DNA from: Candidatus Gottesmanbacteria bacterium
Lineage (GTDB): Bacteria > Patescibacteriota > Microgenomatia > UBA10105 > UBA927
Assembly (NCBI GenBank): GCA_016218215.1
Contig: JACREM010000041.1
Span: forward strand, 1 to 62,805
DNA: 62,805 nucleotides
Reading direction: 5' to 3'
The notes under the pieces were generated by a model, which ran no database searches, was not told the origin of the DNA, and saw only the letters and a list, made by a program, of their open reading frames with translations. Positions 6,001-26,658 of the stretch are shown here, in pieces; position 1 is the first letter of the stretch, and each line of letters opens with the position of its first letter. A program made the translations under genes and the position numbers.

Positions 6001-6485
6001 TAAATGCATTAGAAGTAGAAAATTTGACTGTTAGAAACATTTCCCCATCTAGAATTTTTGTGGTCCGAGAAAATGAAAAAGTTCCAGTTGAGATGCCTAG
6101 TATTAATGTAAAAAGAAATAATTCGGCTATATACACCGTGAAGGTAGATGAAGCAAAACATCCGTATATTTTAAATTTTAAGCAAACTTTTAATCAAGGA
6201 TGGAAAGCATTTGTAATACCGTCTGGAGATACTGAAAAATATGAGAATGCATGGCAGAGATTTAAGTTATTATTTCAATCCCCTGTCGAAGAAACACAAC
6301 ATTTCTCGATAGACGGATATACAAATGCTTGGATTATAAAAAATACTGGTTCATACACAGTACTTCTCGTATATTGGCCACATATGCTATTTCTTGTATC
6401 AGTTGTATGTTCTGTTATTTCGATTTTATTGACTTGCTTAGTAGTGTTAAAGATTATTAGAGAAAAGGGCAAATCACATGAATAG
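3048..6485 (+). CDS. Giant GT-C-like membrane glycosyltransferase (AftD/DUF3367- or YfhO-like architecture)
   Basis: 1145 aa. The N-terminus reads GHDSGFRLDPFQYLHTLWYSWNPNSGFG and is followed by about 12 TM helices. A soluble region of about 650 aa and a single C-terminal TM anchor (LFLVSVVCSVISILLTCLVVL) follow. ATGA overlap with the upstream gene. Confidence 0.6.
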   Translation: MKRIHSIVEILFIFFCSLTPLLWLRNGEIILGHDSGFRLDPFQYLHTLWYSWNPNSGFGVDVNNYSGFLIAQFPEAFFSHVFGSLNAGQTMSFIFWFFTIGISMFILMRNFFTEKKYWSIRILASIFYMYNFYLLQGWFISERAKFSLFAALPLLFLIFWKMLSHKWGILQGSILIALTLFFLNGGGSPPLYGGILVALGILFAYFIVLSIIKRNFIEIIYVLRCVLSIGVATVCINAYWVLPQLYFAFNQYASQLSSSGGIAGILSWEEAVNRYASLINLLRLQGIPDWYENPMHPYSGIFLTSPILIIASFIPSAIMLYVLMKKTLREKLKDQRVFLFVCFMVFLIGLVMTAGSHRPFGFIYIFLLKYLPGFAIFRSAFYKFGPSYWFSAVILFSVSFYLFISQVIKNNLYQKIALSFVIIGVLLYHFPYFTGTFFLWNKPFSTKIVLPQYVKNMFQYLNSTYLTQDNHILILPPLDTAYYADSYSWGFWSLDLLARLSLRSSVIANDSKGPLVAALYDAALRNRNDIFEAIAGRLGIDKILWRNDILYSDKKSDSRNFSYIRDSILKSTAFYNEKTFGEWFLYSTNKLLNSNNIVSVEPLIYRADIYNSDISYFFNANGVLEYPFVFSSDLHKNITEQNLGTFIKGNVLQAECMFCGYEGAKNKDVIFIDQYARFLPSSPFYTFIRQKETKLLSSVQGIPEALVDADLGLATKRIVELSGVINQEGRDNIELLSRDIVMRFKERIDDAFLQIEKLGDVKKNIYKVKINLYIRYFIKYIAEIEKKNILPGNFISSFYEYLRNATEKLSLETWISDGNGHDRYFLTIPTKGLYHFLISNYNKSLNSIKIDNETILDYSQVDLSEGIHKIELTYEPINEIAENVGATEKIFLTYHNKKSYILPALSSLDNYELQFQYKISQGRSIYVALYQNNDSLDKSGNIKRAVYSELEDDGKWHSANFVIQPNFGVSTGEVVFFTANTSNDLNALEVENLTVRNISPSRIFVVRENEKVPVEMPSINVKRNNSAIYTVKVDEAKHPYILNFKQTFNQGWKAFVIPSGDTEKYENAWQRFKLLFQSPVEETQHFSIDGYTNAWIIKNTGSYTVLLVYWPHMLFLVSVVCSVISILLTCLVVLKIIREKGKSHE

Positions 6486-6840
6486 GATGCAAATTCAGTG
6501 TATGGAATTTGTTGCAAAAAATGGTTCAAAATTAATTGTATTTACTCTCGCTGTAGTTTTGCTAATATTCCTAGAGAAGTTTCCCTATTTAAACATTCTA
6601 TTGTCTTATCCTTTTACCTGGAATCTATTTGTAATCCTTTTTTTCTTGTTAGTTGTACTTTTTAAGCCCACAGAGTCTTTTTCCTTTTTTTCTTCTTTGG
6701 TATTTTTATGTTTTTCAGCTATATTTTCTATTTTTCGAAAAGATATGGCTGCTCAAGGAGTCGGAAATATCGCTGTGTATTTATTGATATTTGGATTTTT
6801 ACAAATAGTTCTTTTTAAGTTAAAAGTAAATCATGTATGA
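6478..6840 (+). CDS. Small 4-TM membrane protein
   Basis: 120 aa with four hydrophobic segments. It overlaps both neighbouring genes (8 nt and 4 nt), which implies co-translation with the flanking GT-C genes. Confidence 0.6.
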   Translation: MNRMQIQCMEFVAKNGSKLIVFTLAVVLLIFLEKFPYLNILLSYPFTWNLFVILFFLLVVLFKPTESFSFFSSLVFLCFSAIFSIFRKDMAAQGVGNIAVYLLIFGFLQIVLFKLKVNHV

Positions 6841-8867
6841 AAAAATTTATTGAGAAAATTCTTTTAACGAATAGATTTCAAGTGGTTATGTTTGTGTTTG
6901 TGATATTGTATATAGCATTAGTGTTTCGCGGTTGGTTTTCTTTTTCACTTCATGTATCTGGCGACTTTTTATATAAGTTTCCTGAGGCGGTAAAGGATTT
7001 TCCATTGTTTCCTTCACTTTGGAATTCAATCATAGCCGGGGGACTCGGTGGAAATGCAAGTTTTCTTCTGGGACTAGAGTCCTGGTACTTAGCATCTGCA
7101 AAGATATTTGGTTTTTTTGGTCTCGGATGGGAGTGGGTAGAAAAGATAATCTGGTTCTATCCATTTCTGTTTATTTCATTTTTAGGCAGTTTTTTCCTTG
7201 GGAAAAGGATCCTTCATTCAAGTATTTGGGCTCTCATTTCATCTGTGATTTATTGTACGAATACATATGTCCTCATGATCTCAGGGGGAGGCCAGATTGG
7301 CGTACTGCTTTCAGTTGCTCTTGCTCCATGGGTACTTGATCGATCCTTGGCATTACTCGACCACCTTAGTAGAAAGAATATTGTTTATCTTAGTATTGTG
7401 CTTGCTTTTCAAATGCTGTTTGATGCACGGATGGTGTTTGTTACGAGCATGGGGATTGCTTTATTATTCTTTTTTCAAATTTCATCAATTTCATGGCTTA
7501 AGGATCGATTGCTTTACCTTGGCATTTCATTTTTCTTTGCTTTCGGACTTCTCTCGTGGTGGCTTTTGCCTTTTGTTTTTTCTCCTCATGAAACTTTAAG
7601 TTCCATGGGATTATCGTCAGTATCTCTTTCTGCTGTGCGTTATTTCAGTTTCGCGCCATTTGAGCATGCAATCTCGCTTCTTCATCCCAATTGGCCGGAG
7701 AATATATTTGGCAAGATCCACTTTTTGCAGCCGGAATTTTTACTATTACCGTTTTTGGCATTTTTAAGTTTATCCTTCATACATAAGAGTGAAACGAAGA
7801 GATATTTATATATAGGTTTTGTCATAACAGCACTAGTAGGAGCGTTTTTAGCAAAAGGATCTCAGCCTCCGTTTGGGAATATATATGAATATTTATATAT
7901 GCATGTTCCGGGTTTTAGTTTGTTCCGTGACCCGACTAAATTTTTATTGCTTGTAGCACTTTCGTATTCAGTTTTGATTCCGTACACGCTTCAGAGATTT
8001 GCTGAAATTATTAAAACTAAATATGGAAACAAAAAAGAGAGAACCGTAGTTGGTATTCTGATCTTGTTTTTTATTTTTCTCTGGGGCACAGTGCATAGAG
8101 AAATTTTTACTCCGGGGCTTGGTGGGACTTTTCAGGAGCACGGAGTAAATATAGAATACACTCAGCTGAAAGATTTTTTGTTAAAAGATAAAGAATTTGG
8201 ACGAATGCTTTGGGTGCCAACAACCCATAAATTAGGGTTTTCTTCAGGTTTACATCCATCAATATCCGCTATGGATGTATTGAAAAGTACAAATTCCGCT
8301 GAATTATTTGACAGACTACAGAATTCAGAAACGCTACGAAAACTTGAAGAATGGGCAGTGTCATATATCGTGGTTCCTGAGGATACGAGTGCCGAGATAT
8401 TCGCGACAGACCGAAGGTATGACGACAAAAAATATCAAGAAGCACTTAGGGCCATGGAGATTGTTCCTGGATTCCATGTTGCTGCGCAGTTAGGGAAAAT
8501 TGTAGTTTTCCAATCTAACTTGCCGGTTCGGCACGTGTGGATTATCGGTGATGGAAATATTTCTGTTTCTGCCGAGTATAAAAAATTATCGAATACTTCT
8601 TACATTTTGGACAAACCCATCGGAATAACGTTGACTGCACTCTATTTGTCAGAAAGATATGATCCGGGATGGGTAGCGCGGATAGGTGATTTGCGTATCG
8701 CTTCGACGAAGACAGATACCAATATTAATATGTTTAACATCCCAGATGGAGCATCAGATTCAATTCTGATTGAATACGAGCCGCAAAAATATGTAATTGC
8801 GGGAATGATTTTGTCGATTCTGACCGGATGTGCCATGGCGGTGTATTTTTTCAATAGAAAATTATGA
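6837..8867 (+). CDS. GT-C-like polytopic membrane glycosyltransferase candidate
   Basis: 676 aa. It has an N-terminal multi-TM domain, a soluble C-terminal domain and a terminal TM anchor (VIAGMILSILTGCAMAVYFF). The layout matches the 3048-6485 protein. Confidence 0.6.
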   Translation: MKKFIEKILLTNRFQVVMFVFVILYIALVFRGWFSFSLHVSGDFLYKFPEAVKDFPLFPSLWNSIIAGGLGGNASFLLGLESWYLASAKIFGFFGLGWEWVEKIIWFYPFLFISFLGSFFLGKRILHSSIWALISSVIYCTNTYVLMISGGGQIGVLLSVALAPWVLDRSLALLDHLSRKNIVYLSIVLAFQMLFDARMVFVTSMGIALLFFFQISSISWLKDRLLYLGISFFFAFGLLSWWLLPFVFSPHETLSSMGLSSVSLSAVRYFSFAPFEHAISLLHPNWPENIFGKIHFLQPEFLLLPFLAFLSLSFIHKSETKRYLYIGFVITALVGAFLAKGSQPPFGNIYEYLYMHVPGFSLFRDPTKFLLLVALSYSVLIPYTLQRFAEIIKTKYGNKKERTVVGILILFFIFLWGTVHREIFTPGLGGTFQEHGVNIEYTQLKDFLLKDKEFGRMLWVPTTHKLGFSSGLHPSISAMDVLKSTNSAELFDRLQNSETLRKLEEWAVSYIVVPEDTSAEIFATDRRYDDKKYQEALRAMEIVPGFHVAAQLGKIVVFQSNLPVRHVWIIGDGNISVSAEYKKLSNTSYILDKPIGITLTALYLSERYDPGWVARIGDLRIASTKTDTNINMFNIPDGASDSILIEYEPQKYVIAGMILSILTGCAMAVYFFNRKL

Positions 8868-9669: not shown

Positions 9670-10389
9670 ATGCTTAGTCCATTATATTTACAACAACTTG
9701 CTACCAAATATCAAACGCCGGACATAAATATTTGTCGGGAATATGGACAACATGTACTCTTAAGCTATCTTTATCAAAGATCGGAAGCAAAAGATCTGTA
9801 TTTTAAAGGAGGAACAGCACTCCGGTTGCTTTACAGAAGCACTCGTTTTTCTGAAGATTTAGATTTCGATACTGTCGTACATACTAGCGGGATTTGGGAA
9901 AATGTATTGCAGGATACTCTTGTAGATGTCTCTCGCGAAGGCATAGAGACAGACATAAAAGAGAGTAAAACTACCAGTGGTGGTTATCTTTGTATTGTAA
10001 TATTGAGAAATATTGGTCAGCCTATCACTATTCACTTAGAAATATCATTTCGGAAAGATATAGTGCTAGGAGAGATATTTACCGTCGAAAATGATTTTGT
10101 TTCTGTTTATCCGGTAAAAAGTTTACCTACCAAAAATTTAATTGAAGGTAAATTTCATGCACTATTTGATCGTCAGAAGGCTCGTGATTTTTATGATATA
10201 TATTTTTTGTTACGGGCAAATCTGCTAACCCCCGGCCAAAAAAAACAGTTATATAAAGTGAAACAATTACTTTCCAAAACAACATTGAGTTTTGACAGAG
10301 AGCTATCATTGTTTCTTCCAAAGAGCCAGGTTTTGATTATCCGGGACTTTCGTAATACTTTGTTACGGGAGATTGAACGAAACATTTAA
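9670..10389 (+). CDS. abiEii: Nucleotidyltransferase toxin, AbiEii/AbiGii family
   Basis: 239 aa with the signature [24 protein letters not shown] and the C-terminal motif [11 protein letters not shown]. Confidence 0.85.
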
Positions 10390-10393
10390 CACT

Positions 10394-11443
10394 ATGAAAC
10401 GAAAAAAAGTCCTTATTACTGGATCTGCCGGGCTGATCGGATCGGAAGCCGTACGATTTTATTGTGATAAAGGTTCCGAAGTTCACGGTATAGACAATAA
10501 CATGCGAGCGTATTTTTTCGGCGCAGACGGAGACACCGGTTGGAATAAAAAAAAGCTAATCAAAGATTACAAAAATTATATTCATCATCAGATTGATATA
10601 CGCGACGAAAAAAAGATAGATGATATTTTTAAATCTATACGCTTTGATCTCATCATTCATGCCGCCGCTCAACCATCACATGATTGGGCTGCAAAGGAGC
10701 CGATGACTGATTTTACCATTAATGCCGTAGCGACTCTTCTGCTTCTTGAAAAAACAAGAACGTATGCTAAAGATGCGGTGTTTATTTTTACGTCAACGAA
10801 TAAAGTGTACGGGGATAATCCAAATCTCCTGCCGCTCATAGAAGAAGCAACACGGTACGAATTACCAAAGAGTCATCCGATGTATAAGGGCATAGATGAG
10901 AGTATGAGTCTCGACCATACGACACATAGCATTTTTGGTGTTTCTAAGGCGTCAGCAGATCTCATGGTACAGGAGTACGGCAGGTATTTTGGTCTTTATA
11001 CCGGTGTTTTCCGAGGCGGATGTCTCACAGGAAGTGCTCATTCGCCCTCAAAATTTCACGGTTTCCTTGCATATCTCGTGAAATGTATCCGTGAAGGTAT
11101 TCCATACACTATCATCGGATACAAAGGAAAACAGGTGCGGGATAATATCCATTCACATGATCTGATAACGGCTTTTGATGCGTTCTTTGAGAATCCAAAA
11201 AAAGGCGAGGTCTATAATATCGGCGGCTCCCGACATTCAAATATTTCCATGACCGAGGCTGTGAAGTGTGTTGAAGCGATACTCGGTAAAAAAGCAAAAG
11301 TGACATATATTGATACTCCCAGAGTAGGTGATCATATGTGGTACGTTTCAGACACCGGAAAATTTCAAAGGCATTATCCCAAATGGAAATATGAATATGA
11401 TATCGAGAAAATTCTCCAGGATTTGTGCAAAGGATACAGGTAA
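10394..11443 (+). CDS. NAD-dependent sugar epimerase (SDR; CDP-paratose/tyvelose 2-epimerase-like)
   Basis: Rossmann motif [10 protein letters not shown], then STNKVYGD and the catalytic YxxxK (FGVSKASAD). Overall layout resembles CDP-tyvelose 2-epimerase. I placed the start at [10 protein letters not shown], 4 nt after the abiEii stop, rather than at the ORF-track ATG 10373. Confidence 0.7.
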
Positions 11444-11455
11444 TACTATAAGTAT

Positions 11456-12244
11456 ATGAAAACAATCATTTTGTGTGGTGGAATAGGATATAGATTAAAA
11501 GAAGAGACAGAATTTAAGCCAAAGCCCATGGTTCAAATCGGCAATAAGCCGATACTCTGGCATATCATGAAAATCTATGCACACTTTGGGTATAACGAAT
11601 TTATTATTGCGCTCGGATACAAAGGTGATGATATAAAAGAATATTTTTTGAATCAAAAATATTTTACTCATGATTTTACACTTTTGACGAAAAGCGGAGT
11701 GACGAAAATTCATAAGGAAAATGATAATGGCAAGGGAGTGGATGAATTTAAAATTACATTTGTTGATACGGGTCGCGATACGCTTCCGGGAGAACGAATT
11801 TTACGACTTCAGGAGTATATTCCAAAGACCGATAAAAGTTTTATGGTGACGTATGGCGACGGAGTCAGCAACATAGACATTCGGAAACTTGTCGTGTTTC
11901 ACAACAAACAAAAAACTATAGGAACTGTAACCGGTGTACATCCGAGGAGCAAATACGGTCTCATATCTTTAAATACGAAAACACATATCATAGATGGGTT
12001 TACCGAGAAACCGGTGTTAAATGAGTGGGTAAATGGGGGATTTATGGTATTTAGAAAAGAATTTTTTTCATACCTTAGAAAAGGAGAGATGGAGCATGAA
12101 GCAATACGTCGTCTTATAGCGATAAAACAGCTATCTTTGTATATTCATACCGGTTTTTGGCATGCGATGGATACGTATGTCGATGTGGAAAACCTTAATA
12201 AATACTGGCATGAAAAACCGGAATGGAAGATATGGAAAGACTGA
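11456..12244 (+). CDS. rfbF: Glucose-1-phosphate cytidylyltransferase
   Basis: MKTIILCGGIGYRLKEETEFKPKPMVQIGNKPILWHIMKIYAHFGYNEFIIALGYKG closely parallels the Salmonella RfbF N-terminus. Confidence 0.9.
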   Translation: MKTIILCGGIGYRLKEETEFKPKPMVQIGNKPILWHIMKIYAHFGYNEFIIALGYKGDDIKEYFLNQKYFTHDFTLLTKSGVTKIHKENDNGKGVDEFKITFVDTGRDTLPGERILRLQEYIPKTDKSFMVTYGDGVSNIDIRKLVVFHNKQKTIGTVTGVHPRSKYGLISLNTKTHIIDGFTEKPVLNEWVNGGFMVFRKEFFSYLRKGEMEHEAIRRLIAIKQLSLYIHTGFWHAMDTYVDVENLNKYWHEKPEWKIWKD

Positions 12245-13200
12245 AAAACGTCAGGGTGCTTGTTACCGGAGGATCAGGATTCATAGGGGGATACGTAGTT
12301 AAAAAATTACTTTCAAAAGGTTACAAAGTAAGTGTTATAGATATCAATATCCATAGTTCTTCAGTATTTTTTCTTGAGAAATTAAAATCACAGGTGAAGT
12401 TTACTAATTTAGACATACGCGACAGACCGAAGGTTTTTCGATTTTTTTCAAAATATAAATTTGACTATGTCATCCATCTCGCCGCCGAGCCAATCGTTGA
12501 ACGTGGATATGATGATCCTCTCAAGACATTTGAAACAAATATCATGGGAACAGCAAATGTGCTCGAGGGCTTACGAAGATCGTCTCCTAAGACTGGAGTT
12601 ATTGTGGCTTCTTCTGATAAAGCGTACGGAAAGACTCAAGATAAAACGTATACAGAGAAGTCTCCGCTCGTAGGCGATCACCCGTATGATGTATCAAAAT
12701 CCTGTACGGACCTCATTGCCCAGACATATGCCAAGACCTACGGTATGCCGATCGTGGTGACGAGATTTGGAAACGTCTACGGTGGAGGGGATGTACATCT
12801 CGATCGGATTATCCCCGGTATATGCATGGCAATCATAGATAAGAAGAAATTAAACGTACGAAGTGATGGGACGTATGTCCGTGATTATATATATGTCGAA
12901 GATGTCGCGGATGGATACATATTTTTACTCAAAAATATAGATAAAGCGGCGGGGCAGGTATATAATTTTTCTTCCGACGATAATTTTTCCGTCGTTGATT
13001 TAATACATAAAGCGTCGGAGTATTTAGGAGAAAAAATTTCATATAATATATTAAATTCTGCAAAGAATGAAATACCATATCAACATCTGGATTATTCAAA
13101 AATTCGAACATTAGGATGGAAGCCAAAGCATACATTAAAAGTCGGACTGGAAAAAACACTTTCCTGGTATAAAAAATTTTATAAAGCCGGATTAAATTAG
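12223..13200 (+). CDS. rfbG: CDP-glucose 4,6-dehydratase-like SDR
   Basis: VTGGSGFIGG, ASSDKAYG and YDVSKSC (YxxxK) are present. GNVYGGGDVHLDRIIPG matches the RfbG motif GNVIGGGDWALDRIVPD. The start could be 12223 or 12232. Confidence 0.7.
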   Translation: MEDMERLKNVRVLVTGGSGFIGGYVVKKLLSKGYKVSVIDINIHSSSVFFLEKLKSQVKFTNLDIRDRPKVFRFFSKYKFDYVIHLAAEPIVERGYDDPLKTFETNIMGTANVLEGLRRSSPKTGVIVASSDKAYGKTQDKTYTEKSPLVGDHPYDVSKSCTDLIAQTYAKTYGMPIVVTRFGNVYGGGDVHLDRIIPGICMAIIDKKKLNVRSDGTYVRDYIYVEDVADGYIFLLKNIDKAAGQVYNFSSDDNFSVVDLIHKASEYLGEKISYNILNSAKNEIPYQHLDYSKIRTLGWKPKHTLKVGLEKTLSWYKKFYKAGLN

Positions 13201-13210
13201 GAGGTATAGT

Positions 13211-14341
13211 ATGAAACAGAAGAAAAAATTTTCTCCCAAAGAGCTCATCCTCACCGCGGGTCCCTCTGTGTCGGAAAAAGAAGTGAGGTATGTGACGGAT
13301 GCCGTGAAGCATGGATGGAATAACCATTATAGAGATTATATAGAGAAATTTGAGAGCGCTTTTGCAAAATATATCGGCGTGAAATACGCGCTTTCATTAT
13401 CCAGCGGCACAGCTGCTCTTCATCTGGCTGCAATAGGGTGCGACATCGGGCCAGGTGATGAAGTGATTGTACCCGAAATTACTTTTGTCGCTTCAGCAAA
13501 TGTGGTGAAATACGTGGGTGCAACACCTGTTTTCGTTGATATTGAATCCGATACCTGGTGCATGGATCCGGTGAGCTTGAGAAAAGCGATAACTAAAAAA
13601 ACAAAAGCCATCATGCCTGTCCATATCTACGGACATCCGGCAAACATGATCGAGATCAACAAAATAGCCAAAGAATTCAAGCTGAAAGTTATTGAGGACG
13701 CGTGCCCGTCCATAGGCGCAGAGGTAAACGGCAAGAAAACAGGTGCATTAAGTGACGTCGGATGTTTTAGTTTTCAGGGTGCAAAAGCTGTGGTGACCGG
13801 AGAGGGCGGGATGCTTGTAACTGATGACAGATATATCTATGAAAAAGCCAGAGACTACGGAAATCATGCTAAGGATCACACCAAAGCTATGTGGCATACA
13901 GACATAGGCTACATGTACAGAATGACGAATATGCAGGCGGCATTTGGGCTTGCCCAGATAGAGCGGGTGGGAACGATGGTAGAGAAAAAAAGGAAGATTT
14001 TTAGTTGGTATAAGGAATTTTTAGATGGAGTGCACGGAATTACACTGAATACTGAAAAGCCATGGGCAAAAAATGAATACTGGATGTCCTCGATAGTTCT
14101 TGATAAGAGCGTACGAATAACCAGAGATGATATGATGGTGGAATTGAAAAAGAGGAATATTGATACTCGTCCATTTTTCTATCCCATCAGCATGCTGCCG
14201 ATGTATTCATCGGTCAAGGTGAATAATCCCGTCGCTTACTATGTAGGCCCACATGGGATCAATCTTCCGAGTGGACATAATCTGACTCGTGAACAAGTGA
14301 GATATGTGAGTTTGGCTGTAAAGGAGCTAATTCGGAAGTAA
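13211..14341 (+). CDS. DegT/DnrJ/EryC1/StrS family PLP-dependent sugar aminotransferase
   Basis: 376 aa with GTAALHLA, VIVPEITFVASAN and the FSFQGAKAVVTGEGG Schiff-base lysine context. A GGAGG Shine-Dalgarno sequence lies upstream. Confidence 0.85.
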   Translation: MKQKKKFSPKELILTAGPSVSEKEVRYVTDAVKHGWNNHYRDYIEKFESAFAKYIGVKYALSLSSGTAALHLAAIGCDIGPGDEVIVPEITFVASANVVKYVGATPVFVDIESDTWCMDPVSLRKAITKKTKAIMPVHIYGHPANMIEINKIAKEFKLKVIEDACPSIGAEVNGKKTGALSDVGCFSFQGAKAVVTGEGGMLVTDDRYIYEKARDYGNHAKDHTKAMWHTDIGYMYRMTNMQAAFGLAQIERVGTMVEKKRKIFSWYKEFLDGVHGITLNTEKPWAKNEYWMSSIVLDKSVRITRDDMMVELKKRNIDTRPFFYPISMLPMYSSVKVNNPVAYYVGPHGINLPSGHNLTREQVRYVSLAVKELIRK

Positions 14342-14348
14342 ATATTGC

Positions 14349-14406
14349 TGTCATCCCCGACCTGATCGGGGATCCAGACTGGATTCCCGCGTTCGCGGGA
14401 ATGACA
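14349..14406. repeat. Intergenic double-hairpin palindromic element (REP-like)
   Basis: ATCCCCGA-cctga-TCGGGGAT (14353-14373) and ATTCCCGC-gttc-GCGGGAAT (14383-14402) are closed by TGTCAT/ATGACA (14349-14354 / 14401-14406). Confidence 0.55.
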
Positions 14407-14423
14407 ATTGCATTTGGTTTTTT

Positions 14424-15101
14424 ATGAAAGAATCAATGGTTAAGCGCGAAAAAAGAATAGAAACATTACTCCATGATATAAAGCATGCAAATTCAGGTGA
14501 TGAGTATGCTCTTCAATTTTCGGTAGACGCAAAAAAATATCGACTCATACCCATAACATACAAAGATCAAGAGTCACGAAATGCAGTAATACTACTTACA
14601 GCATGGAGAAAGAAAAATGATTGGTGGTTTCCGTCGCAGTTTAAAGTGACGTACGAGGGTACGAAGAGATGGCTTACTTCACAGCTTCTAGAAAAAAAAG
14701 GGAGAGTATTATTTTTTCTTGAAGATGAGAAGCGAAATAAAATTGGTCACTTGGGGCTTTATTCTTTTGATTTCAAGCATAACTCGTGTGAGATAGATAA
14801 TGTGATACGCGGAGAAGAAAGTGCTCCCGGGGTTATGACGGATGCACTCAATACTCTCATGCAGTGGACGTATGACGTGTTAAAAATTAAGACCATGTAT
14901 CTTCGGGTTTTTAGTGACAACGAGCGGGCGATAAAATTATACAGACGGTGTAACTTTGTAGATGATGATTTAATTCCACTAGTGAAGGAGGTTCGAGATG
15001 ACGGCACGTATTGGATTGAAGATTCAAAAATGAAAGCTAAGCCTGAGAGAAGTTTTCTCAAAATGAGGCATGTGCCAAAAAAGTTGAAAGACACAAGATG
15101 A
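14424..15101 (+). CDS. GNAT family N-acetyltransferase
   Basis: 225 aa. The acetyl-CoA-binding region reads RGEESAPGVMTDALNTLMQW..LRVFSDNERAIKLYRRCNF. Confidence 0.75.
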   Translation: MKESMVKREKRIETLLHDIKHANSGDEYALQFSVDAKKYRLIPITYKDQESRNAVILLTAWRKKNDWWFPSQFKVTYEGTKRWLTSQLLEKKGRVLFFLEDEKRNKIGHLGLYSFDFKHNSCEIDNVIRGEESAPGVMTDALNTLMQWTYDVLKIKTMYLRVFSDNERAIKLYRRCNFVDDDLIPLVKEVRDDGTYWIEDSKMKAKPERSFLKMRHVPKKLKDTR

Positions 15102-15919
15102 AAGATATAGGCCAACTTAAACAAATAGCAAGAGAAGTGAGAAAAAATATACTCACAATGAGTGCGAGAGCAAAAAGTGCACACATGGGAGGAGCCCTTT
15201 CCGTCGTTGAAATTCTCGTGACTTTGTACTATCAGATTATGAAAAATAACCCCAAAAATCCGGAAGATCCCAAGCGCGACAGACTGATATTAAGCAAGGC
15301 ACACGATGCTAAGGCGCTTTTTGCTGTACTCGCAGAGTGTGGATATTTTGATAAAAAAATTCTCGAAGGATATGAAATGGATGGCGGAATTCTCGCCGGA
15401 CACTCTGTGCGTCATGCAGTGCCCGGAGTGGAGGCGTCAGCCGGAGCATTGGGTCACGGGCTGTCAATCGCGACAGGCGTTGCCCTCGCCGGCAAAAAAT
15501 CGGGTCAGAAATATAAAACATATGCGATTCTCTCTGACGGTGAGTGCGACGAGGGGTCTATCTGGGAAGCAGCTCTATTTGCCGGTCATCATGCACTGGA
15601 AAATCTCGTCGTTGTTATTGACCATAACAAACTTCAAGGGTATGGATATACGAAAGATGTTCTCAATTTAGAGCCATTTGCCGAAAAGTGGGAGAGTTTT
15701 GGCTTTGGAGTAAAAGAAGTAGAGGGACATGATATGAAAAAGCTTTCATCGGTATTTAGTAAAACCCCGTTTAAAAAACACAAACCAAGTGTCGTCATCG
15801 CACATACCATAAAGGGACTAGGGGGGATGAAACAGCACATCGGACAGATTTCTTCCCAATATAAACCACCGACGCAGGATGAGCTTGCAGATTTACTCAT
15901 AGAATTGGAGAAGTCATGA
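15098..15919 (+). CDS. Transketolase, N-terminal (ThDP/PP-binding) subunit
   Basis: GHSVRHAVPGVEASAGALGHGLSIATG and LSDGECDEGSIWEAALFAGHHALENLVVVIDHNKLQ are present. ATGA overlap on both sides. Confidence 0.85.
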   Translation: MKDIGQLKQIAREVRKNILTMSARAKSAHMGGALSVVEILVTLYYQIMKNNPKNPEDPKRDRLILSKAHDAKALFAVLAECGYFDKKILEGYEMDGGILAGHSVRHAVPGVEASAGALGHGLSIATGVALAGKKSGQKYKTYAILSDGECDEGSIWEAALFAGHHALENLVVVIDHNKLQGYGYTKDVLNLEPFAEKWESFGFGVKEVEGHDMKKLSSVFSKTPFKKHKPSVVIAHTIKGLGGMKQHIGQISSQYKPPTQDELADLLIELEKS

Positions 15920-16845
15920 GAAATACGTTTGCAAAAGTGCTACTTGAGGAGGCAAAGAAAAATAAGAAGGTTATTTTTCTGACAGGAGATCTTGGTTTCT
16001 CTGTGTTTGAGGATTTCCAGAAGGAGTGCCCGGATCAGTTTATAAACGCGGGTGTAGCTGAACAGAACATGACGGGTGTGGCAGCCGGGCTTGCCATGGA
16101 AGGCATGATTCCCATCATCTATTCCATCATCCCATTTGTGACGATGAGAAATTTTGAACAGATACGAAATGATATCTGTTATCAGAATTTGAATGTAAAG
16201 ATTGTTGCAGTTGGTGCTGGTTTTTCGTACGGACCATACGGACATACCCACCATGGACTTGAAGATATTGGAATCATGAGAACGCTCCCGGGGTTGACAA
16301 TTCTTGCTCCCGGGGACCCTACAGAGGCACGGCTTGCAACTGAAGCGATGTTTAAATATGTAGGGCCTACGTATCTTCGACTTGGAAAGGGCGGAGAGCC
16401 AATTGTTCATGAGGCTGAGCCTCTGTTTACCATAGGAAAAGCAATTGAACTTTCCAAAGGACGCGATATTACAATTGTGACCACTTCAAATATGCTCTCC
16501 CGGGGCAATGAAGTGAGGTTAGATTTGGAGACAAAAGGGTATTCGGTCGGACTTGTCAGCATGCATACGATAAAACCTTTAGATGTGTCGTTCATTCTGA
16601 GATTATCCAATTCCTGCAGGGCGATTTTTACCATAGAGGAGCATAGTATTATAGGAGGACTTGGGAGCAGTGTCGCCGAGGTGTTAGCGGAACAGAATAA
16701 TACAGTAATTTTTAAGAGGTTCGGAGTTTCTGATAGGTTTACGAAAGTGAATGGATCCCGGACGTATCTACAAAAAGCAAATGGGCTTAATACTGAGACT
16801 CTTTCAGAGTCTATGATACATATTATGAAAAAGAAAAAGATATGA
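15916..16845 (+). CDS. Transketolase, C-terminal (pyrimidine-binding) subunit
   Basis: FINAGVAEQNMTGVAAGLAMEG and HHGLEDIGIMRTLPGLTILAPGD are present. It is paired with the N-terminal subunit gene. Confidence 0.85.
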   Translation: MRNTFAKVLLEEAKKNKKVIFLTGDLGFSVFEDFQKECPDQFINAGVAEQNMTGVAAGLAMEGMIPIIYSIIPFVTMRNFEQIRNDICYQNLNVKIVAVGAGFSYGPYGHTHHGLEDIGIMRTLPGLTILAPGDPTEARLATEAMFKYVGPTYLRLGKGGEPIVHEAEPLFTIGKAIELSKGRDITIVTTSNMLSRGNEVRLDLETKGYSVGLVSMHTIKPLDVSFILRLSNSCRAIFTIEEHSIIGGLGSSVAEVLAEQNNTVIFKRFGVSDRFTKVNGSRTYLQKANGLNTETLSESMIHIMKKKKI

Positions 16846-18143
16846 GAGATGTTTCGCTTGAAACTTTTATAAAAAAGTATTACCGCTCGCATTTTCGTTT
16901 GAAAAAATTTGAACCCGGTGTGACACCTGTTCCCGTGTCGGGAAAAGTTTTTGATGATAGAGAATTACTGTTTGGAACTCAAGCAGTACTAGACGGATGG
17001 TGGACAGAAGGGGAGTTTGCAGAGAAGTTTGAAAAAGATTTTTCTATGGTTGTGGGCGCAAGATATGTGAGTCTCGTAAATTCCGGCTCATCAGCGAATT
17101 TGATTGCTTTTTCAGCTTTGACATCGACCGTTTTTGGTGAGAGGGCTCTCAAACCCGGGGATGAGGTCATAACAGTTGCGACAGGTTTTCCAACGACGGT
17201 AAATCCGATCATTCAGAATCGTTGTATTCCTGTATTTATTGACAATGATATTGCGACGAAAAATGCAACGATTGACGGCATAAAAAAAGCGCTTTCAAAA
17301 AAAACAAAAGCCATCATGCTTGCTCATACTCTCGGAAATCCATTGCCGTTGGATGAGATATTAGCTTTAGTGAAAGAGAAAAGACTTTGGTTTATAGAAG
17401 ACTGCTGCGATGCTCTTGGATCTACCTATAAGGGGAAACACGTGGGTACATTTGGAGATATAGCGACGTTTTCTTTTTACCCTGCACACCAGATTACCAT
17501 GGGCGAAGGGGGCGCCGTAGTAGCTCAGAAGCCACTATTACACAAAGCGATCCGTCAGTTCCGTGATTGGGGTCGCGACTGTTGGTGCGACACGGGAAAA
17601 GATGATACATGTCACAGACGATTTAAGTGGCAGCTTGGTGATCTTCCCATGGGGTACGATCATAAATATATCTATTCTCAGATCGGCTACAACGTAAAGC
17701 TGACCGATATGCAAGTTGCGATTGGGCTCGCTCAACTTGGAAAACTTCCCGGATTTATCAAGAAACGGAAGAGTAACTTTGGCAAACTCTATACAGGATT
17801 ATTAAAGTACTCAAGGTTTCTAACATTTTCGACTGCGGAAAATGGATCGGATCCTTGCTGGTTTGGTTTTGCAATAGTCGTGAACAAAAACGCCCCGTTT
17901 TTTAAACTAGATCTGGTTCAGTATCTGGAGTCGAAAAAAATAGGAACAAGAAGTTTATTTGCAGGTAATTTATTAAAGCATCCTGCGTATAAAGGAAGAA
18001 CTGACATACGTCTTTCCGGAGCTCTGACAAATTCTGACGTACTTATGGAGAATGGCTTTTGGATAGGTGTGTATCCTGGCATCTCAGAGGAGATGATACG
18101 GTATATTCTCCGTACATTCGATATGTTTATGAAACAATGGTAA
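16842..18143 (+). CDS. rfbH: CDP-6-deoxy-4-hexulose 3-dehydrase (E1, RfbH/DdhC type; PMP and [2Fe-2S])
   Basis: 433 aa aminotransferase fold. His replaces the PLP lysine (FSFYPAHQIT). The exact C-X57-C-X1-C-X7-C spacing is present (EDCC..57 aa..DCWCDTGKDDTCHRRF). Confidence 0.85.
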   Translation: MRDVSLETFIKKYYRSHFRLKKFEPGVTPVPVSGKVFDDRELLFGTQAVLDGWWTEGEFAEKFEKDFSMVVGARYVSLVNSGSSANLIAFSALTSTVFGERALKPGDEVITVATGFPTTVNPIIQNRCIPVFIDNDIATKNATIDGIKKALSKKTKAIMLAHTLGNPLPLDEILALVKEKRLWFIEDCCDALGSTYKGKHVGTFGDIATFSFYPAHQITMGEGGAVVAQKPLLHKAIRQFRDWGRDCWCDTGKDDTCHRRFKWQLGDLPMGYDHKYIYSQIGYNVKLTDMQVAIGLAQLGKLPGFIKKRKSNFGKLYTGLLKYSRFLTFSTAENGSDPCWFGFAIVVNKNAPFFKLDLVQYLESKKIGTRSLFAGNLLKHPAYKGRTDIRLSGALTNSDVLMENGFWIGVYPGISEEMIRYILRTFDMFMKQW

Positions 18144-18152
18144 AATGGTTTC

Positions 18153-19097
18153 ATGGATCCTCAAAGAACGGTTCTTGTCACGGGTGGTGCAGGGTTTATC
18201 GGTTCCCACCTTTGCGACGAACTTCTTGCCCAGAAGTATTCAGTTATTTGTTTTGATAGCCTCATAACGGGTGCAAAAAGTAATATCTCCAAGGCACTTA
18301 CAAACCCCAATTTTAGATTTATCGAGTGTGACGTGACACAGGAGTTACCGAAATTGCCAAAATTATCTTACATCTTTCATCTCGCCTCGCCTGCTTCGGT
18401 CATAGATTATCAGGCACATCCTGAAGAGACGGCGCTCGTAAACTCCATGGGTACAATCGAAATGTTAAAGCTCGCACAGGAACACCAGGCACGGTTTTTG
18501 TTTACGTCAACCTCTGAAATATACGGAGATCCATTAGAACATCCTCAGAAAGAAACGTATTGGGGAAATGTAAACACGGTTGGTGTCAGGTCTTGTTATG
18601 ATGAGTCAAAAAGATTTGGTGAAACGATGACCGATCTTTATGTGGGTAAATATGGGATTGATGGTCGGATAGTTCGAATATTTAATACATACGGACCACG
18701 AATGAGGAAGACAGACGGACGCGTCATATCAAACCTAGTCAATCAGGCTCTCGAGGGAAAACCGCTCACTGTCTATGGAGACGGATTACAGACACGCTCT
18801 TTTTGTTTTGTCTCTGACCTTGTGGATGGGATCATGAAGATGATGGTTACAGACGGACTATCCGGGGAGGTGGTAAATCTCGGAAATCCGGAAGAGTATA
18901 CCACTCTTGATTTAGCTCGAAAAGTACTGTCGATGACCGGCTCTTCTTCGACTATAGTTTTTTACCCGCTCCCCAAAGATGATCCAAAGATGCGGTGCCC
19001 TGATATATCAAAGGCGATACAATTACTCGGATGGAAACCGACGGTAACACTCGAAGAAGGACTTGGGAAAACAATTGAATATTACAAAACCGTATAA
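18153..19097 (+). CDS. uxs: UDP-glucuronate decarboxylase (UDP-xylose synthase)
   Basis: VTGGAGFIGSHLCD, TSTSEIYGDPLEHPQKETYWGNVN, CYDESKR, RIFNTYGPRM and DGRVISNLV are all present. Confidence 0.85.
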   Translation: MDPQRTVLVTGGAGFIGSHLCDELLAQKYSVICFDSLITGAKSNISKALTNPNFRFIECDVTQELPKLPKLSYIFHLASPASVIDYQAHPEETALVNSMGTIEMLKLAQEHQARFLFTSTSEIYGDPLEHPQKETYWGNVNTVGVRSCYDESKRFGETMTDLYVGKYGIDGRIVRIFNTYGPRMRKTDGRVISNLVNQALEGKPLTVYGDGLQTRSFCFVSDLVDGIMKMMVTDGLSGEVVNLGNPEEYTTLDLARKVLSMTGSSSTIVFYPLPKDDPKMRCPDISKAIQLLGWKPTVTLEEGLGKTIEYYKTV

Positions 19098-19116
19098 ATT
19101 TTTATTATTGCATGCC

Positions 19117-19359
19117 ATGAAACCACAGGATATTATATTTTTTATCATATTTTTTGGCCTCATTTCACAGAGAAAATTTGAGTGGCTTGCTGTACTTGGA
19201 CTATTTTGTATTGTGCTCAGTATCCCGCTTTTTTCTCTATGGATTTTTTTCACTGCTGAAAGACTTACGTGGTACGCGGCTCTTTGTATCGCGGTTTCTG
19301 CAATACATCTACTCATTTCACTCAGACACAATGAATATTTGGAGAGGAAGGATATATGA
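19117..19359 (+). CDS. Small membrane protein (about 80 aa)
   Basis: Start trimmed to MKPQDIIFFIIFFGL, after the uxs stop. Two or three hydrophobic helices. ATGA-coupled to galE. No family recognised. Confidence 0.4.
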   Translation: MKPQDIIFFIIFFGLISQRKFEWLAVLGLFCIVLSIPLFSLWIFFTAERLTWYAALCIAVSAIHLLISLRHNEYLERKDI

Positions 19360-20339
19360 AGTTCCTCATCACCGGCGGGGCAGGATATATAGGATCTATC
19401 ACGAATTCGGTTCTTCAAAAAGCCGGACATGAAACAGTAATTTATGACAGAGTCGCATGCCGGAAGAGTAAGGTAGGGGTTCAAACGGAGAGTATAGTAG
19501 GCGATCTCCGTGATCTGTCAGCGATACAAAAAGTATTTAAAACCCATACATTTGATGCGGTCATCCACTTTGCAGCATCTGCGCTTGCGGGTGAATCTAT
19601 GCTTCGTCCACACGAGTATTTTGAAAACAATATTCTCGGCGGATTAAATCTTCTGGAGGCCATGAAGGATAGTGCATGTAAAAATTTTATATTTTCATCG
19701 ACCTGTGCTGTCTATGGATATCCGACAAAGACTCCCGTGACGGAAGATGAAACGATAAAGCCTGTGTCAGTGTACGGAGCGTCCAAGAGGATGTTTGAGG
19801 AGATATTGGCGTGGTATGAAACGTTGTATGGCATCAAGATAGGAATCCTGAGGTACTTTAATGCATCGGGCGCAGCACTTGACGGATCACTCGGTGAACT
19901 TCATGTCCCGGAGACGCACATAATCCCGATCGCGCTTGACGTGGCACTTGGGAAACAGAAAGAATTTTCTCTCTATGGCAATGATTATGAAACAAAGGAT
20001 GGTACATGTGTGCGGGATTATATCCATGTCTTGGATCTCGCAGACGCGCATATACTCGCGGCTTCGCATCTTCGGTCCGGAGGAGCATCATTTACCGTGA
20101 ACTTAGGAGTCGGCAGGGGATATTCGAATCTTGAAATATTATCCATGATAGAAAAAGTCACCCTTAAAAATATTCCATACAAGATACTTCCCCGGCGTGC
20201 CGGTGACCCGGCAAAGATTTTTGCCGATAATACAAAGGCGAAAGAGTTTCTTGGATGGACGCCAAAATATTCGGATCTGGAAACGATCATTTCTTCAGCA
20301 TGGAAATGGCATTCCTTCTTACGGAAGGAAGGATCATGA
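19356..20339 (+). CDS. galE: UDP-glucose 4-epimerase
   Basis: ITGGAGYIGS, SSTCAVYG, YGASKRMFEEIL, RYFNASGA and VRDYIHVLDLADAH are present. Confidence 0.85.
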   Translation: MKFLITGGAGYIGSITNSVLQKAGHETVIYDRVACRKSKVGVQTESIVGDLRDLSAIQKVFKTHTFDAVIHFAASALAGESMLRPHEYFENNILGGLNLLEAMKDSACKNFIFSSTCAVYGYPTKTPVTEDETIKPVSVYGASKRMFEEILAWYETLYGIKIGILRYFNASGAALDGSLGELHVPETHIIPIALDVALGKQKEFSLYGNDYETKDGTCVRDYIHVLDLADAHILAASHLRSGGASFTVNLGVGRGYSNLEILSMIEKVTLKNIPYKILPRRAGDPAKIFADNTKAKEFLGWTPKYSDLETIISSAWKWHSFLRKEGS

Positions 20340-22643: not shown

Positions 22644-23507
22644 ATGGATCTAAGCATTATTATTCCGAATTTTAATACAAAAAATCTTCTCACAAAGTGT
22701 CTTACATCTATCGAAACTTCGCTTTCTGCGGCTTTAATACGGTATGAAATTATTGTTATTGATAATGGGTCGAAGGATGGGTCTATTGCACTGATAAAAA
22801 GAAGCTTTCCTCATGTCGTTTTAATACAGAATAAAACGAATGTGGGGTACGGAAAGTCAAATAATGTAGGCATAAAAAGAGCAAAAGGTGAGTGTGTATT
22901 GCTTTTAAATTCGGATATTGAAGTGTTGGACTCAGCTATAAAAACCCTATACTCTTCTATACAAACGTCGAAGGACATTTTTTTAGGTGGACGGTTGTTA
23001 AATCCTGATTATTCTCCTCAGTCATCCTGTGGACCCATGTATACACTTCCCGTCGTTTTCACGATGCTATTCCTTAAGGGAGATGTGCTTGGAATTACTC
23101 GGGGCTCTCCTTCGAGAATTTCAAAAGTCGATTGGATATCCGGAGCATGTCTTATGGGCCGAAAGACAGATTTTATACAGATTGGTCTTTTTGATGAAAA
23201 GATTTTTATGTATATGGACGAGATTGATTTTCTCTATCGGGCAAAGCAAAAAGGGTATACGATAGTATATAATCCAGATGCCCGATTTATCCATGTGGGA
23301 GCTGCGAGCAGCGGGACAAAAAAAACGCCGATTCTCAATATCTATACGGGACTTTTATATTTTTACTCAAAACACCGTTCTCAATCAGAGCTTAGTGTTT
23401 TAAAGGTGTTGTTGCGTATAAAAGCTCGGATGGTAATAGTGATTTGTAATCTCATTGGCCGAAAGGAAATAGTTTCAATATATGAAAAAGCTCTGGCTCT
23501 GGTGTAA
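22644..23507 (+). CDS. GT2 family glycosyltransferase
   Basis: LSIIIPNFN, VIDNGSKDGS, LLLNSDIEV and GACLMGRK..FDEKIFMYMDEIDFLYRAKQKGY are present. Confidence 0.85.
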   Translation: MDLSIIIPNFNTKNLLTKCLTSIETSLSAALIRYEIIVIDNGSKDGSIALIKRSFPHVVLIQNKTNVGYGKSNNVGIKRAKGECVLLLNSDIEVLDSAIKTLYSSIQTSKDIFLGGRLLNPDYSPQSSCGPMYTLPVVFTMLFLKGDVLGITRGSPSRISKVDWISGACLMGRKTDFIQIGLFDEKIFMYMDEIDFLYRAKQKGYTIVYNPDARFIHVGAASSGTKKTPILNIYTGLLYFYSKHRSQSELSVLKVLLRIKARMVIVICNLIGRKEIVSIYEKALALV

Positions 23508-26500: not shown

Positions 26501-26658
26501 GGCTTTTGTATCGAAATCCAAAACTACGGATATTTGCCTGGCCGTCTTTATCACAGGCTTTTGACGCTGTGATGGCAGGCTCTGATACCCAAAAGGTATT
26601 TGAATTTGAGGAAAAAGGAAGTGTGGTTGAACGCATAAAACCGCAGACGATACAATGA
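23482..26658 (+). CDS. Fusion protein: O-antigen ligase/polymerase (Wzy_C-like) domain plus a second GT-C-like multi-TM module
   Basis: 1058 aa. The N-terminal half carries Wzy_C-like features (SRLSRISSTFSGHYDLAAY.., FMTVSRISFFAL, FGSGYGSIGLAVDNSYLRMLAEVGLLGF). The C-terminal half has another 10 or more TM helices opening with YFVGDDFTWFRW. Confidence 0.65.
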   Translation: MKKLWLWCKENILFISSIVLLIFIPLYPKFPLLDIKNTWVYVRIEDFLVLAVLFIWGLLALKHRISLKTPITIPIFLFWLSGAIATLHGILLIFPTLQVAYPNVAFLSFLRRMEYISMFFVAYASVKEKKYLGVLVLAIVFTLLSVSLYGIGQIYVGFPAFLTMNEEYAKGLAIHLSRLSRISSTFSGHYDLAAYLVLILPIIASMIFGFRNLFVRVFLVFSAVLGFIALFMTVSRISFFALFVSFGLVLFMHKKKFVLYSIPVVVVLALLFLSLSPKVFERFSNTIKAIDVVVDAKTGDPIGHTKTVPRSYFVDKTVKQQYTQSIKNIYGYASASAMLIVHEAELPEKVTLLLEPSSPTGEDLPQGTGYINLSLSPILQKLDTFLYEPKPRVATTSAEVFVINGNFLVKKVFTYDLSFTTRFQGEWPKAMEAFSKNILFGSGYGSIGLAVDNSYLRMLAEVGLLGFFSFFSIFIIVGVYIKKILPDVDSRLLRSVVIGFTAGLVGLAINALFIDVFEASKVAFVTWIFLGFILGLLRLYERKPVHISKEFLHVLVSTPAIVVYIALTAFLLYSPMTHNYFVGDDFTWFRWASDCSVKTASGSCPVDAKTIVRYFTESNGFFYRPGSKVYFLLMYSLFWLNQSAYHIVSLMLHGVVAILVFFLSKKLLKNIYFALSAGILFLLLNGNAEAVYWVSATGFLFSAVFSLLGLLSFISFEENKERRFVVFSVMFILLSTFFHEVGIVTPILILLYRSIYSPGESMRRLWTDKISKLLFLPVPVYLSMRYISQSHWLSGDYSYNLLRLPLNVAGNSFGYLMLTVFGPISEPLYQIIRTGLKAHVIIAAIIIVSASVVGVWFVRKYSHILEKQDRLTIHFGILFFVVSLLPFLGLGNMSSRYSYLSTIGVIFILIIIAKYLFKSLLYNGKMIAGFGTAVAISAFVLFQIIQQQQITSDWYEAGKRTHAFIVSMGGSYENGWASMPMELHFVNVPIRHGGAWVFPVGMPDALWLLYRNPKLRIFAWPSLSQAFDAVMAGSDTQKVFEFEEKGSVVERIKPQTIQ

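Follow-up and report, generated by a model that had tools for sequence, protein, structure and literature searches.

Why should a transketolase be encoded in the middle of a deoxysugar cassette? The question is raised by a contig of Candidatus Gottesmanbacteria (GenBank assembly GCA_016218215.1, contig JACREM010000041.1), analysed here as one stretch of 62,805 nucleotides (positions 1 to 62,805, the window). On its + strand, ten genes in a row (10373-20339) make up a glycan-type cassette, and two of them, TK-N and TK-C, encode the subunits of a split transketolase (TK). A first-pass annotation had described eight of these genes, running from a tyvelose-epimerase-like short-chain dehydrogenase/reductase (SDR) to the 3-dehydrase E1, and had suggested that the TK pair forms a C-C bond on a cytidine diphosphate (CDP)-ketosugar. 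All eight open reading frames (ORFs) were confirmed on the + strand, in that order, with family matches and with the coordinates listed in Table 1. The coupling that it had described, of the TK subunits to the GNAT gene upstream and to E1 downstream, was likewise seen in the sequence, as 4-bp ATGA overlaps at the GNAT/TK-N, TK-N/TK-C and TK-C/E1 junctions. The analysis supports a functional link of the pair to the deoxysugar pathway, as opposed to the co-location of a housekeeping enzyme, on the strength of a remodelled substrate channel, a patchy distribution, synteny with a 3-dehydratase and the presence of a YerE-like enzyme in sibling E1 loci. We further consider it somewhat more probable than its negation that the pair is a YerE-analogous, TK-type C-C ligase acting on CDP-4-keto-3,6-dideoxyhexose for a cell-surface glycan.

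Active site of the split transketolase

We mapped the residues of the pair on Escherichia coli TktA (L005; L numbers denote the loci compared) and on the biochemically characterised split TK of Carboxydothermus hydrogenoformans (6YAK; PMC7661550), using E. coli numbering. The latter is the closest solved structure, with TK-N matching its N chain at 200.6 bits and TK-C matching the C chain of 6YAJ/6YAK at 210.4 bits. The PP, Pyr and TKC domains are all present, together with the thiamine diphosphate (ThDP)/metal motif, in which the first Gly of GDG is Ser (SDG), and the cofactor-activating Glu411. Conserved residues comprise H26, H66, H100, D155, N185, R358, S385, E411 and H473, His100 being kept by every member of the clade. 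In contrast to the C. hydrogenoformans enzyme, in which every canonical residue is present, the window pair has H461→Gly, D469→Tyr, R520→Lys and H261→Gln, and the TK-C motif reads SYGPYGHTHHGLED where canonical enzymes have GEDGxSHQ.

The canonical phosphate set R358/S385/H461/R520 is broken by a clade-wide H461→Gly, with position 520 remaining basic (Lys or Arg), and Asp469, which binds the 2-hydroxyl of the acceptor, is Tyr in the window and in 33/34 loci from the clade of candidate phyla radiation (CPR) bacteria, L028 having Asn. H261 aligns to Gln (SSQYKPP versus VEWHG in 6YAK) in a short stretch of alignment that is consistent across the clade. In E. coli TK, H461 binds the substrate phosphate, H461S and R520V improve activity on non-phosphorylated acceptors, and D469Y gives 8-fold higher activity on propionaldehyde, with the opposite stereoselectivity (PMC3657141). 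By these mutant data, the changes in the window pair fall at positions where engineering steers TK away from hydroxylated sugar phosphates.

A search of NCBIfam and Pfam with the window pair returned only generic TK and DXS matches below their cut-offs, which indicates that no curated family exists for the Tyr469 clade. Public sources label the homologues of the pair 'transketolase'.

Distribution and phylogeny

We scanned one genome for each of 185,579 species with the two most conserved motifs of the clade. The 92 matching stretches resolved into 80 loci, from many CPR lineages, one Aenigmatarchaeote, Verrucomicrobiota, Planctomycetota, Geobacter, Helicobacter, Sulfurospirillum, Arcobacter, Pelagibacteraceae and others, and the canonical H461/D469/R520 combination was absent from every family member. 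About 20 of the records (for example, L010, L012, L013, L020, L021 and L023) are titled 'uncultured Gammaproteobacteria bacterium'; their genes are CPR-like in content, with proteins 55-65% identical to those of CPR, and the titles are therefore suspected to be placeholders or wrong taxonomy.

An exhaustive HMMER search with TK-C against 1.84 billion cluster representatives (50% identity) gave 2,315 matches at E ≤ 1e-30. H461 and D469 occurred together in none of the best 150 of these 2,315 representatives; 136 of the 150 have Gly461, and residue 469 is diverse (L 64, A 23, Q 16, E 11, N 7, Y 6). A neighbour-joining tree of TK-C, with E. coli TktA as the root, places the genuine split TK basally, beside sequences that retain H461, and shows the Tyr469 clade as derived and monophyletic, with 48 tips (CPR, two Verrucomicrobiota and the archaeon). 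In this phylogeny, a check proposed with the first-pass annotation, the clade stands apart from true TK.

One Levybacteria locus (L007:10001-13525, on a contig shared with L026) carries a tandem of two different TK-like pairs, with 45% identity between them. The second of these has N-Q-L at positions 461/468/469 and keeps His261.

A distant Gly461 clade from Geobacter, Sulfurospirillum and Helicobacter has A, Q or S at position 469 (L064:6304-12679, L080:7188-12850, L084:3376-5704). Its neighbours are radical SAM/SPASM enzymes, a methyltransferase, an RmlD-like reductase and a GT9 heptosyltransferase, and by this gene content it looks like a different, likewise undescribed, sugar-modifying system.

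Gene neighbourhoods of related loci

Related loci were annotated by BLAST against a reference set of window proteins and neighbouring proteins, and neighbours were counted within 9 kb of the TK pair in 34 non-redundant Tyr469-clade loci. A glycan-locus context was found in all 34, and the pair recurs in nucleoside diphosphate (NDP)-sugar cassettes of more than 30 other genomes; the arrangement is therefore not due to chance. An RfbF-like nucleotidyltransferase (58-90% identity) is present in 21 of the loci, a 4,6-dehydratase in 22, an RfbH-family 3-dehydratase in 23 and a GT2 glycosyltransferase in 18. The tyvelose-epimerase-like SDR, in only 4/34, is an accessory part, and a transaldolase occurs in 3/34, on the opposite strand.

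Fifteen of the 23 RfbH-family partners are E1 proteins with iron-sulfur (Fe-S) cysteines, mostly encoded directly downstream of TK-C. The other eight, of about 400 aa, score best against RfbH and ColD and have His for Lys without the Fe-S cysteines, features that identify them as ColD-like 3-dehydratases, predicted to need no reductase. Several of the loci without an RfbH-family partner sit on truncated contigs.

Between the dehydratase and TK-N lies a variable slot. Counted, like the other neighbours, within 9 kb of the pair, it is filled by an aminotransferase with an N-acyltransferase (GNAT or formyltransferase) in 12 loci, by an SDR in 11 and by a YerE-like ThDP enzyme of the acetolactate-synthase type in 6; a formyltransferase stands in place of GNAT in L001, L004, L010, L013 and L022. 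The aminotransferase and GNAT of the window are thus a swappable tailoring module. Whatever fills the slot, the Gly461/Tyr469 signature stays constant, with Asn469 of L028 as the sole exception, suggesting that the TK substrate is the shared intermediate made by the nucleotidyltransferase, the dehydratase and the 3-dehydratase.

ThDP enzymes of E1 loci

We also approached the question from the E1 side, by a search with the window E1 that yielded six CPR contexts of homologues at 66-74% identity. All six hold a ThDP enzyme. Four (L089-L092) have a YerE-like, acetolactate-synthase-type enzyme and no TK, and in two (L093 and L094) the TK pair adjoins E1 or lies close to it; YerE-like proteins also occur in the sibling loci L008, L015 and L027. 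Each of these six sampled loci carries either a YerE-like enzyme or a TK pair, so the pair fills the place of the YerE-like enzymes, and this displacement pattern is the strongest support for a YerE-like job of the pair on the E1 product.

E3, the RfbI/AscD-type Fe-S flavoprotein reductase, was found in 0/6 of these sampled loci. A Pfam search of all long ORFs of the 62.8-kb window detected no Fer2, FAD or NAD reductase, and a ferredoxin-motif regular expression run over the ORFs of related CPR loci gave no plant-type ferredoxin motif and no E3. In the sampled E1 loci that have neither TK nor E3, the electron source of E1 evidently lies outside the locus.

The YerE-like gene is flanked in L089:3961-9004 and L092:1895-8479 by genes for aspartate kinase, aspartate-semialdehyde dehydrogenase and a class I/II aminotransferase, with a homoserine dehydrogenase gene in L092 in addition. 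These flanking genes are the set needed for 4-hydroxy-2-oxobutanoate, which is a donor used by the characterised YerE-like enzyme ErwE (PMC12247030), and CPR bacteria may, by this gene content, make erwiniose-like long-branch sugars.

Proposed pathway and alternatives

We propose, with confidence a little over even, that TK-N and TK-C form a heterotetrameric, ThDP-dependent enzyme of the TK superfamily that has been recruited to nucleotide-sugar tailoring; its donor, acceptor and product, as named below, are all predicted. The RfbF-like enzyme would, judging by its family, make CDP-glucose, which the SDR dehydratase would convert to CDP-4-keto-6-deoxyglucose. E1, of demonstrable family but without an E3 encoded in the window, would remove the C-3 oxygen to give CDP-4-keto-3,6-dideoxyhexose. 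The CDP-3,6-dideoxyhexose pathway of the first-pass annotation stands in so far as E1 is bona fide; it is qualified by the missing E3, by the RfbF model match below its cut-off and by the dehydratase, on which the CDP and dTDP models tie, leaving the nucleotide ambiguous.

The TK-like enzyme would then take up a two-carbon ketol as dihydroxyethyl-ThDP, with a ketose phosphate or hydroxypyruvate as donor, and add it to the C-4 carbonyl, giving a 4-C-hydroxyacetyl branched sugar in a TK-type counterpart of the YerE reaction. A hydroxylated C2 donor unit is favoured because H26, H100 and H473 are retained. An Asp469 would find no alpha-hydroxyl to bind at C-3 of the 3-deoxy-4-keto acceptor; Tyr469 could pack against the 3-methylene at the site where Asp469 normally binds the 2-hydroxyl, and R358, S385 and Lys520 could hold the CDP diphosphate or the donor phosphate. 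With low confidence, the aminotransferase and GNAT would turn the side-chain ketone into a 1-acetamido-2-hydroxyethyl branch, and in sibling loci the SDR might reduce that ketone as YerF does; alternatively, and with no more confidence, the module could draw off some of the 4-keto intermediate for a 4-acylamino sugar. Finally, glycosyltransferases and the large membrane proteins of the locus would pass the product to a cell-surface glycan.

The alternative just named corresponds to the separate N-acetylated 4-amino branch that had been suggested for the aminotransferase and GNAT. It is a possible reading, but the two genes form a swappable module and in L094 they flank the TK pair, an order that fits one sugar at least as well and mildly favours a single joint pathway over two products. 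The option of a chain-extended (octose-type) sugar was not borne out, as the 4,6-dehydratase removes the only position able to carry an aldehyde.

The coupling of TK-N to GNAT and of TK-C to E1, which we take as translational, counts for a C-C ligase within the pathway, but several observations weigh on the other side. The retained R358, S385 and basic residue 520 would allow a phosphorylated substrate. In three loci (L024, L028 and L041), the 7-10 kb or so around the TK pair hold no 3-dehydratase. Since 6/34 loci combine the pair with a YerE-like enzyme, the one is not a strict substitute for the other. The aminotransferase belongs to the type that acts at ring C-4, with perosamine synthetase as its closest match, and would use up the same C-4 ketone; for a single-product pathway its substrate would have to be a side-chain ketone, and for this there is no precedent. 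Ketone use by TK-family enzymes is unproven, the Streptomyces cases discussed below included, and the role of any member of the clade is a prediction from sequence.

We weighed four other explanations of the pair. It could be a housekeeping split TK of the non-oxidative pentose-phosphate pathway that is merely co-located, as might be expected from the use of split genes as the normal form of TK in some Microgenomates (PMC7143001), from the name 'transketolase' given to homologues in public sources, from a transaldolase/FSA gene about 7 kb away in L001, L010 and L016, and from the retention of R358, S385, H26, H66, H100 and H473. However, H461, D469, R520 and H261, all of which a validated split TK retains, are all replaced; a housekeeping gene of Microgenomates would be expected to give many more than the 92 motif matches; pairs occur in tandem within one locus; and relatives are found in Geobacter, Helicobacter and Pelagibacteraceae, which are known to possess a normal tkt. 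The synteny with NDP-sugar genes is also consistent, whereas the transaldolase is limited to three loci. On the residue changes, patchy distribution, tandem duplication and synteny, an argument built from loci rather than whole genomes, we rejected this explanation as the main one and regard it as very unlikely. A C-C ligase that serves this keto sugar but decarboxylates a 2-oxo acid as its donor, as DXS or the pyruvate dehydrogenase (PDH) E1 component does, is unlikely; with pyruvate it would yield a 4-C-acetyl, yersiniose-type branch. TK-C scores as well on DXS models as on TK models (TIGR00204, 184 bits), DXS structures are its second-best PDB matches, Gln takes the place of H261, which ligates the donor C1-OH, and PDH-E1-like two-subunit catalysts perform branching in some antibiotic pathways (alpha-KADH2 class, PMC12247030). 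Position 100 argues the other way: DXS consistently has Phe and TKs have His there, and H100F/L moves TK towards pyruvate (PMC7661550), but every clade member has His100, and H26 and H473 are kept too.

Two further explanations place the action of the pair off the nucleotide sugar or give it a redox role. It might act on small molecules, supplying either an unusual sugar phosphate to the nucleotidyltransferase or a glycolyl/C2 unit for N-acylation. Split TKs donate glycolyl units in some non-ribosomal peptide pathways, part of the phosphate site (R358, S385, K520) is kept, and the pair often lies beside an N-acyltransferase, being flanked by aminotransferase and GNAT genes in L094. We consider such a role quite unlikely: the pair is equally conserved in the 11 SDR-type loci that have no aminotransferase or acyltransferase, genes for a carrier protein or a lipoyl partner are absent from the vicinity, the nucleotidyltransferase is RfbF-like and of the ordinary kind, and the 3-dehydratase is the strongest and most specific partner. 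Finally, the pair might replace E3, the dihydroxyethyl-ThDP carbanion being oxidised to glycolyl-ThDP with transfer of two electrons to the [2Fe-2S] cluster of E1. TKs are oxidisable at the ThDP intermediate by ferricyanide, no E3 is encoded in the window and no Fe-S-reductase-like ORF in any CPR E1 locus examined, and TK-C is coupled to E1, which follows TK-C in most E1-type loci. Against this, the same Tyr469 TK is paired in eight loci with a ColD-like dehydratase that has no Fe-S cysteines and no need of a reductase, four sampled E1 loci lack both TK and E3, and TK has no redox cofactor or Fe-S motif. Given the cluster-free ColD-like partners and the E1 loci without TK or E3, we disfavour this role, which seems highly improbable.

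Returning to the C-C ligase, its scope may extend beyond the window, although we put this wider reading clearly below even. The window pair might belong to a large, unrecognised family of split TK-like nucleotide-sugar C-C ligases. Such a family could, tentatively, span at least 150 clusters at 50% identity, from CPR, a DPANN archaeon, Verrucomicrobiota, Planctomycetota, Geobacter, Epsilonproteobacteria and SAR11. Its sugar-phosphate site may have been dismantled (Gly461) and position 469 diversified for different non-phosphorylated acceptors, an idea that we hold with reserve. Within it, the CPR Tyr469 clade would conceivably make 4-C-hydroxyacetyl-3,6-dideoxyhexoses, with the ketone then reduced, or aminated and N-acylated.

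Gene content of the locus and its surroundings

The assignment of E1 as RfbH is unambiguous on sequence grounds: the protein aligns over its full length with Yersinia E1 (3BCX, 490 bits) and has both the iron-sulfur motif C-X-C-X7-C (CWCDTGKDDTC) and YPAHQI, in which His replaces the lysine that binds pyridoxal 5'-phosphate (PLP). The first SDR has CDP-tyvelose 2-epimerases as its best PDB matches (9RL0 at 1e-36, and 1ORR), and the structures nearest to the aminotransferase are the sugar aminotransferase 7B0M and the perosamine synthetase 3BN1. A UXS-like SDR starts 9 bp past E1, and a homologue of it (56% identical) follows E1 in L011 and a 3-dehydratase-like gene in L042; it is possibly the ketoreductase of the pathway, of which its membership is uncertain. 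The nearest homologues of the window proteins come from Gottesman-, Woese- and Levybacteria, which, with the one-sided coding and the dcw cluster behind a glycan locus, marks the window as CPR/Patescibacteria DNA.

Table 1 Genes of the cassette and other features of the window
Feature	Position	Strand	Match or remark
CDP-tyvelose/paratose 2-epimerase-like SDR	10394..11443; alternative TTG start 10373	+	Pfam Epimerase
RfbF-like glucose-1-phosphate cytidylyltransferase-like nucleotidyltransferase	11456..12244	+	TIGR02623, 253.6 bits, full length; cut-off 300 not reached
NDP-hexose 4,6-dehydratase-type SDR	12223..13200	+	TIGR02622 (CDP) 200.9 bits, TIGR01181 (dTDP) 200 bits; both below cut-off
DegT-family sugar aminotransferase	13211..14341	+	PF01041, 383 bits
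GNAT N-acetyltransferase	14424..15101	+	PF13302 and PF00583; weak matches to PseH and SpeG
TK-N, transketolase-like subunit A (PP domain)	15098..15919	+	PF00456 (Transketolase_N)
TK-C, transketolase-like subunit B (Pyr and TKC domains)	15916..16845	+	PF02779 (Transket_pyr), PF02780 (Transketolase_C)
CDP-4-keto-6-deoxyglucose 3-dehydrase E1 (RfbH), type dependent on pyridoxamine 5'-phosphate (PMP) and [2Fe-2S]	16842..18143	+	NF011936, 643.8 bits, cut-off 423
UXS/4,6-dehydratase-like SDR	18153..19097	+	Pfam Epimerase/GDP_Man_Dehyd
GalE		+	family match; last of the ten genes, after the UXS-like SDR
GT4 glycosyltransferase	140-1336		not on the + strand
Large-protein region	3048-8867		weak homologues of recurring large proteins at 3048-6485 and 6837-8867
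ORF of 198 aa	9071-9667		no family match
AbiEii-type nucleotidyltransferase toxin gene	9670-10389
ORF of 209 aa	20255-20884		N-terminal GT4 domain only
GT4/GT1 gene, 384 aa	20881-22035
Large-protein region	23482-28103
dcw/mur cluster	42272-57347
Mur-ligase-like gene	42272-43444		no N-terminal domain
Alpha/beta hydrolase gene	49293-50009		in dcw/mur cluster
DegT-like aminotransferase gene	51478-52704		in dcw/mur cluster
FemAB-family gene	52701-53714		in dcw/mur cluster

Directly upstream of the sugar operon lies an AbiEii-type toxin gene, the end of which is overlapped by the first SDR ORF if its TTG start is used. The 198-aa ORF that precedes the toxin gene may encode the antitoxin. Beyond the cassette, the 209-aa ORF, which overlaps the 384-aa GT4/GT1 gene by 4 bp, may be a truncated duplicate or a split glycosyltransferase.

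Many CPR loci (for example, L006:13007-20389 and L024:10908-17778) encode, downstream of the TK pair, large proteins (about 650-1240 aa) without a Pfam or NCBIfam match, accompanied by a small protein of ~115 aa and a GT2 of ~345 aa; the window has two regions of this kind. Together, these proteins may form a lipid-carrier glycosylation module of the GtrB/GtrA/GT-C-like type.

Downstream of the glycan locus, the window carries the division and cell wall (dcw) cluster, with five Mur-ligase-like genes and, among them, aminotransferase, FemAB-family and hydrolase genes. This content hints at a non-standard peptidoglycan stem or cross-bridge. All family-matched ORFs of the window are on the + strand except the GT4 gene near its start, and GC skew is positive throughout positions 1-62805, with the cumulative skew climbing monotonically. 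This asymmetry agrees with that reported for some Microgenomates (PMC7143001).

Significance and comparison with known systems

If the pair is such a C-C ligase, branched 3,6-dideoxyhexoses would have two enzymatic origins independent of each other, and CPR bacteria, known only from genomes, would bear elaborate branched surface sugars. The pair would also provide natural TK-family enzymes that accept ketones, which have been sought without success in ThDP biocatalysis (PMC12247030), with Gly461, Tyr469 and Lys520 as the residues of interest. Should the wider reading hold, it would imply cell-surface sugars of an undescribed type and the first natural TK-family enzymes with ketone acceptors. 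Since genes of the clade are annotated simply as 'transketolase', reconstructions of the CPR pentose-phosphate pathway from Pfam or KEGG matches may count a sugar-tailoring paralogue as the housekeeping enzyme.

The arrangement itself was not described in the literature that we found on transketolase in O-antigen/rfbH, cell-surface glycan and CPR contexts. Compared with the classical CDP-3,6-dideoxyhexose pathway (Salmonella rfbFGHI, Yersinia ddh/asc), the window shares the RfbF-like and RfbG-like enzymes, E1 and the tyvelose-epimerase-like SDR; in contrast, E3 is not encoded and a ThDP enzyme, an aminotransferase and an N-acetyltransferase are inserted. With canonical TKs, including the C. 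hydrogenoformans split TK, the pair has in common the alpha2beta2 split architecture, the ThDP/metal motif, the cofactor-activating Glu and H26/H66/H100/H473, but it differs at H461, D469, R520 and H261 and lies in a glycan locus rather than in a central-metabolism context. The split TK of a complete Microgenomates genome, where 'transketolase genes' form an operon with an aldolase (PMC7143001), likewise differs from the window pair in its setting.

YerE-like ThDP enzymes, which belong to the decarboxylase superfamily, are established catalysts for the branching of CDP-4-keto-3,6-dideoxyglucose (PMC12247030). YerE and the YerE-like lyases of yersiniose, erwiniose and caryophyllose pathways share with the TK pair a niche beside RfbF/RfbG/E1-type genes for the synthesis of an NDP-4-keto-3,6-dideoxyhexose. 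The YerE reaction adds an acyl anion equivalent to the C-4 ketone, forming a tertiary alcohol (PMC12247030), and the same kind of reaction is proposed here for the pair. YerE is, however, a single chain of the acetolactate-synthase type (TPP_enzyme_N/M/C) that decarboxylates 2-oxo acids, whereas the pair has two subunits with TK-family domains only and, unlike YerE, keeps the His residues for a hydroxylated C2 donor. A TK-type C-C step on a CDP-ketosugar, as the first-pass annotation had it, gains in its tie to the pathway, through residues, distribution, synteny and the E1-side loci, while its chemistry is still a prediction.

The same suggestion had spoken of an undescribed route, which holds only in part. 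No ketone-accepting TK has been characterised and none has a structure (PMC12247030), yet split-gene TKs are already proposed, none of them proven, for hydroxyacetyl branching of keto sugars in miharamycin, amipurimycin and 13 Streptomyces clusters (PMC12247030). Like the window pair, these are two-gene TKs within sugar-tailoring clusters. The Streptomyces proposal reportedly goes back to Krug et al. 2024. We compared these enzymes with the window pair by description only: they reside in actinomycete secondary-metabolite clusters and serve nucleoside antibiotic cores, whereas the clade described here is found in CPR and other bacteria, in cell-surface glycan loci and coupled to an E1- or ColD-type 3-dehydratase. 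The window pair fails the tests of a canonical TK, in its phosphate site and at Asp469, and that of YerE, in its architecture. On balance, it probably works like YerE while resembling the enzymes proposed from Streptomyces, a conclusion that we hold with slightly better than even confidence.

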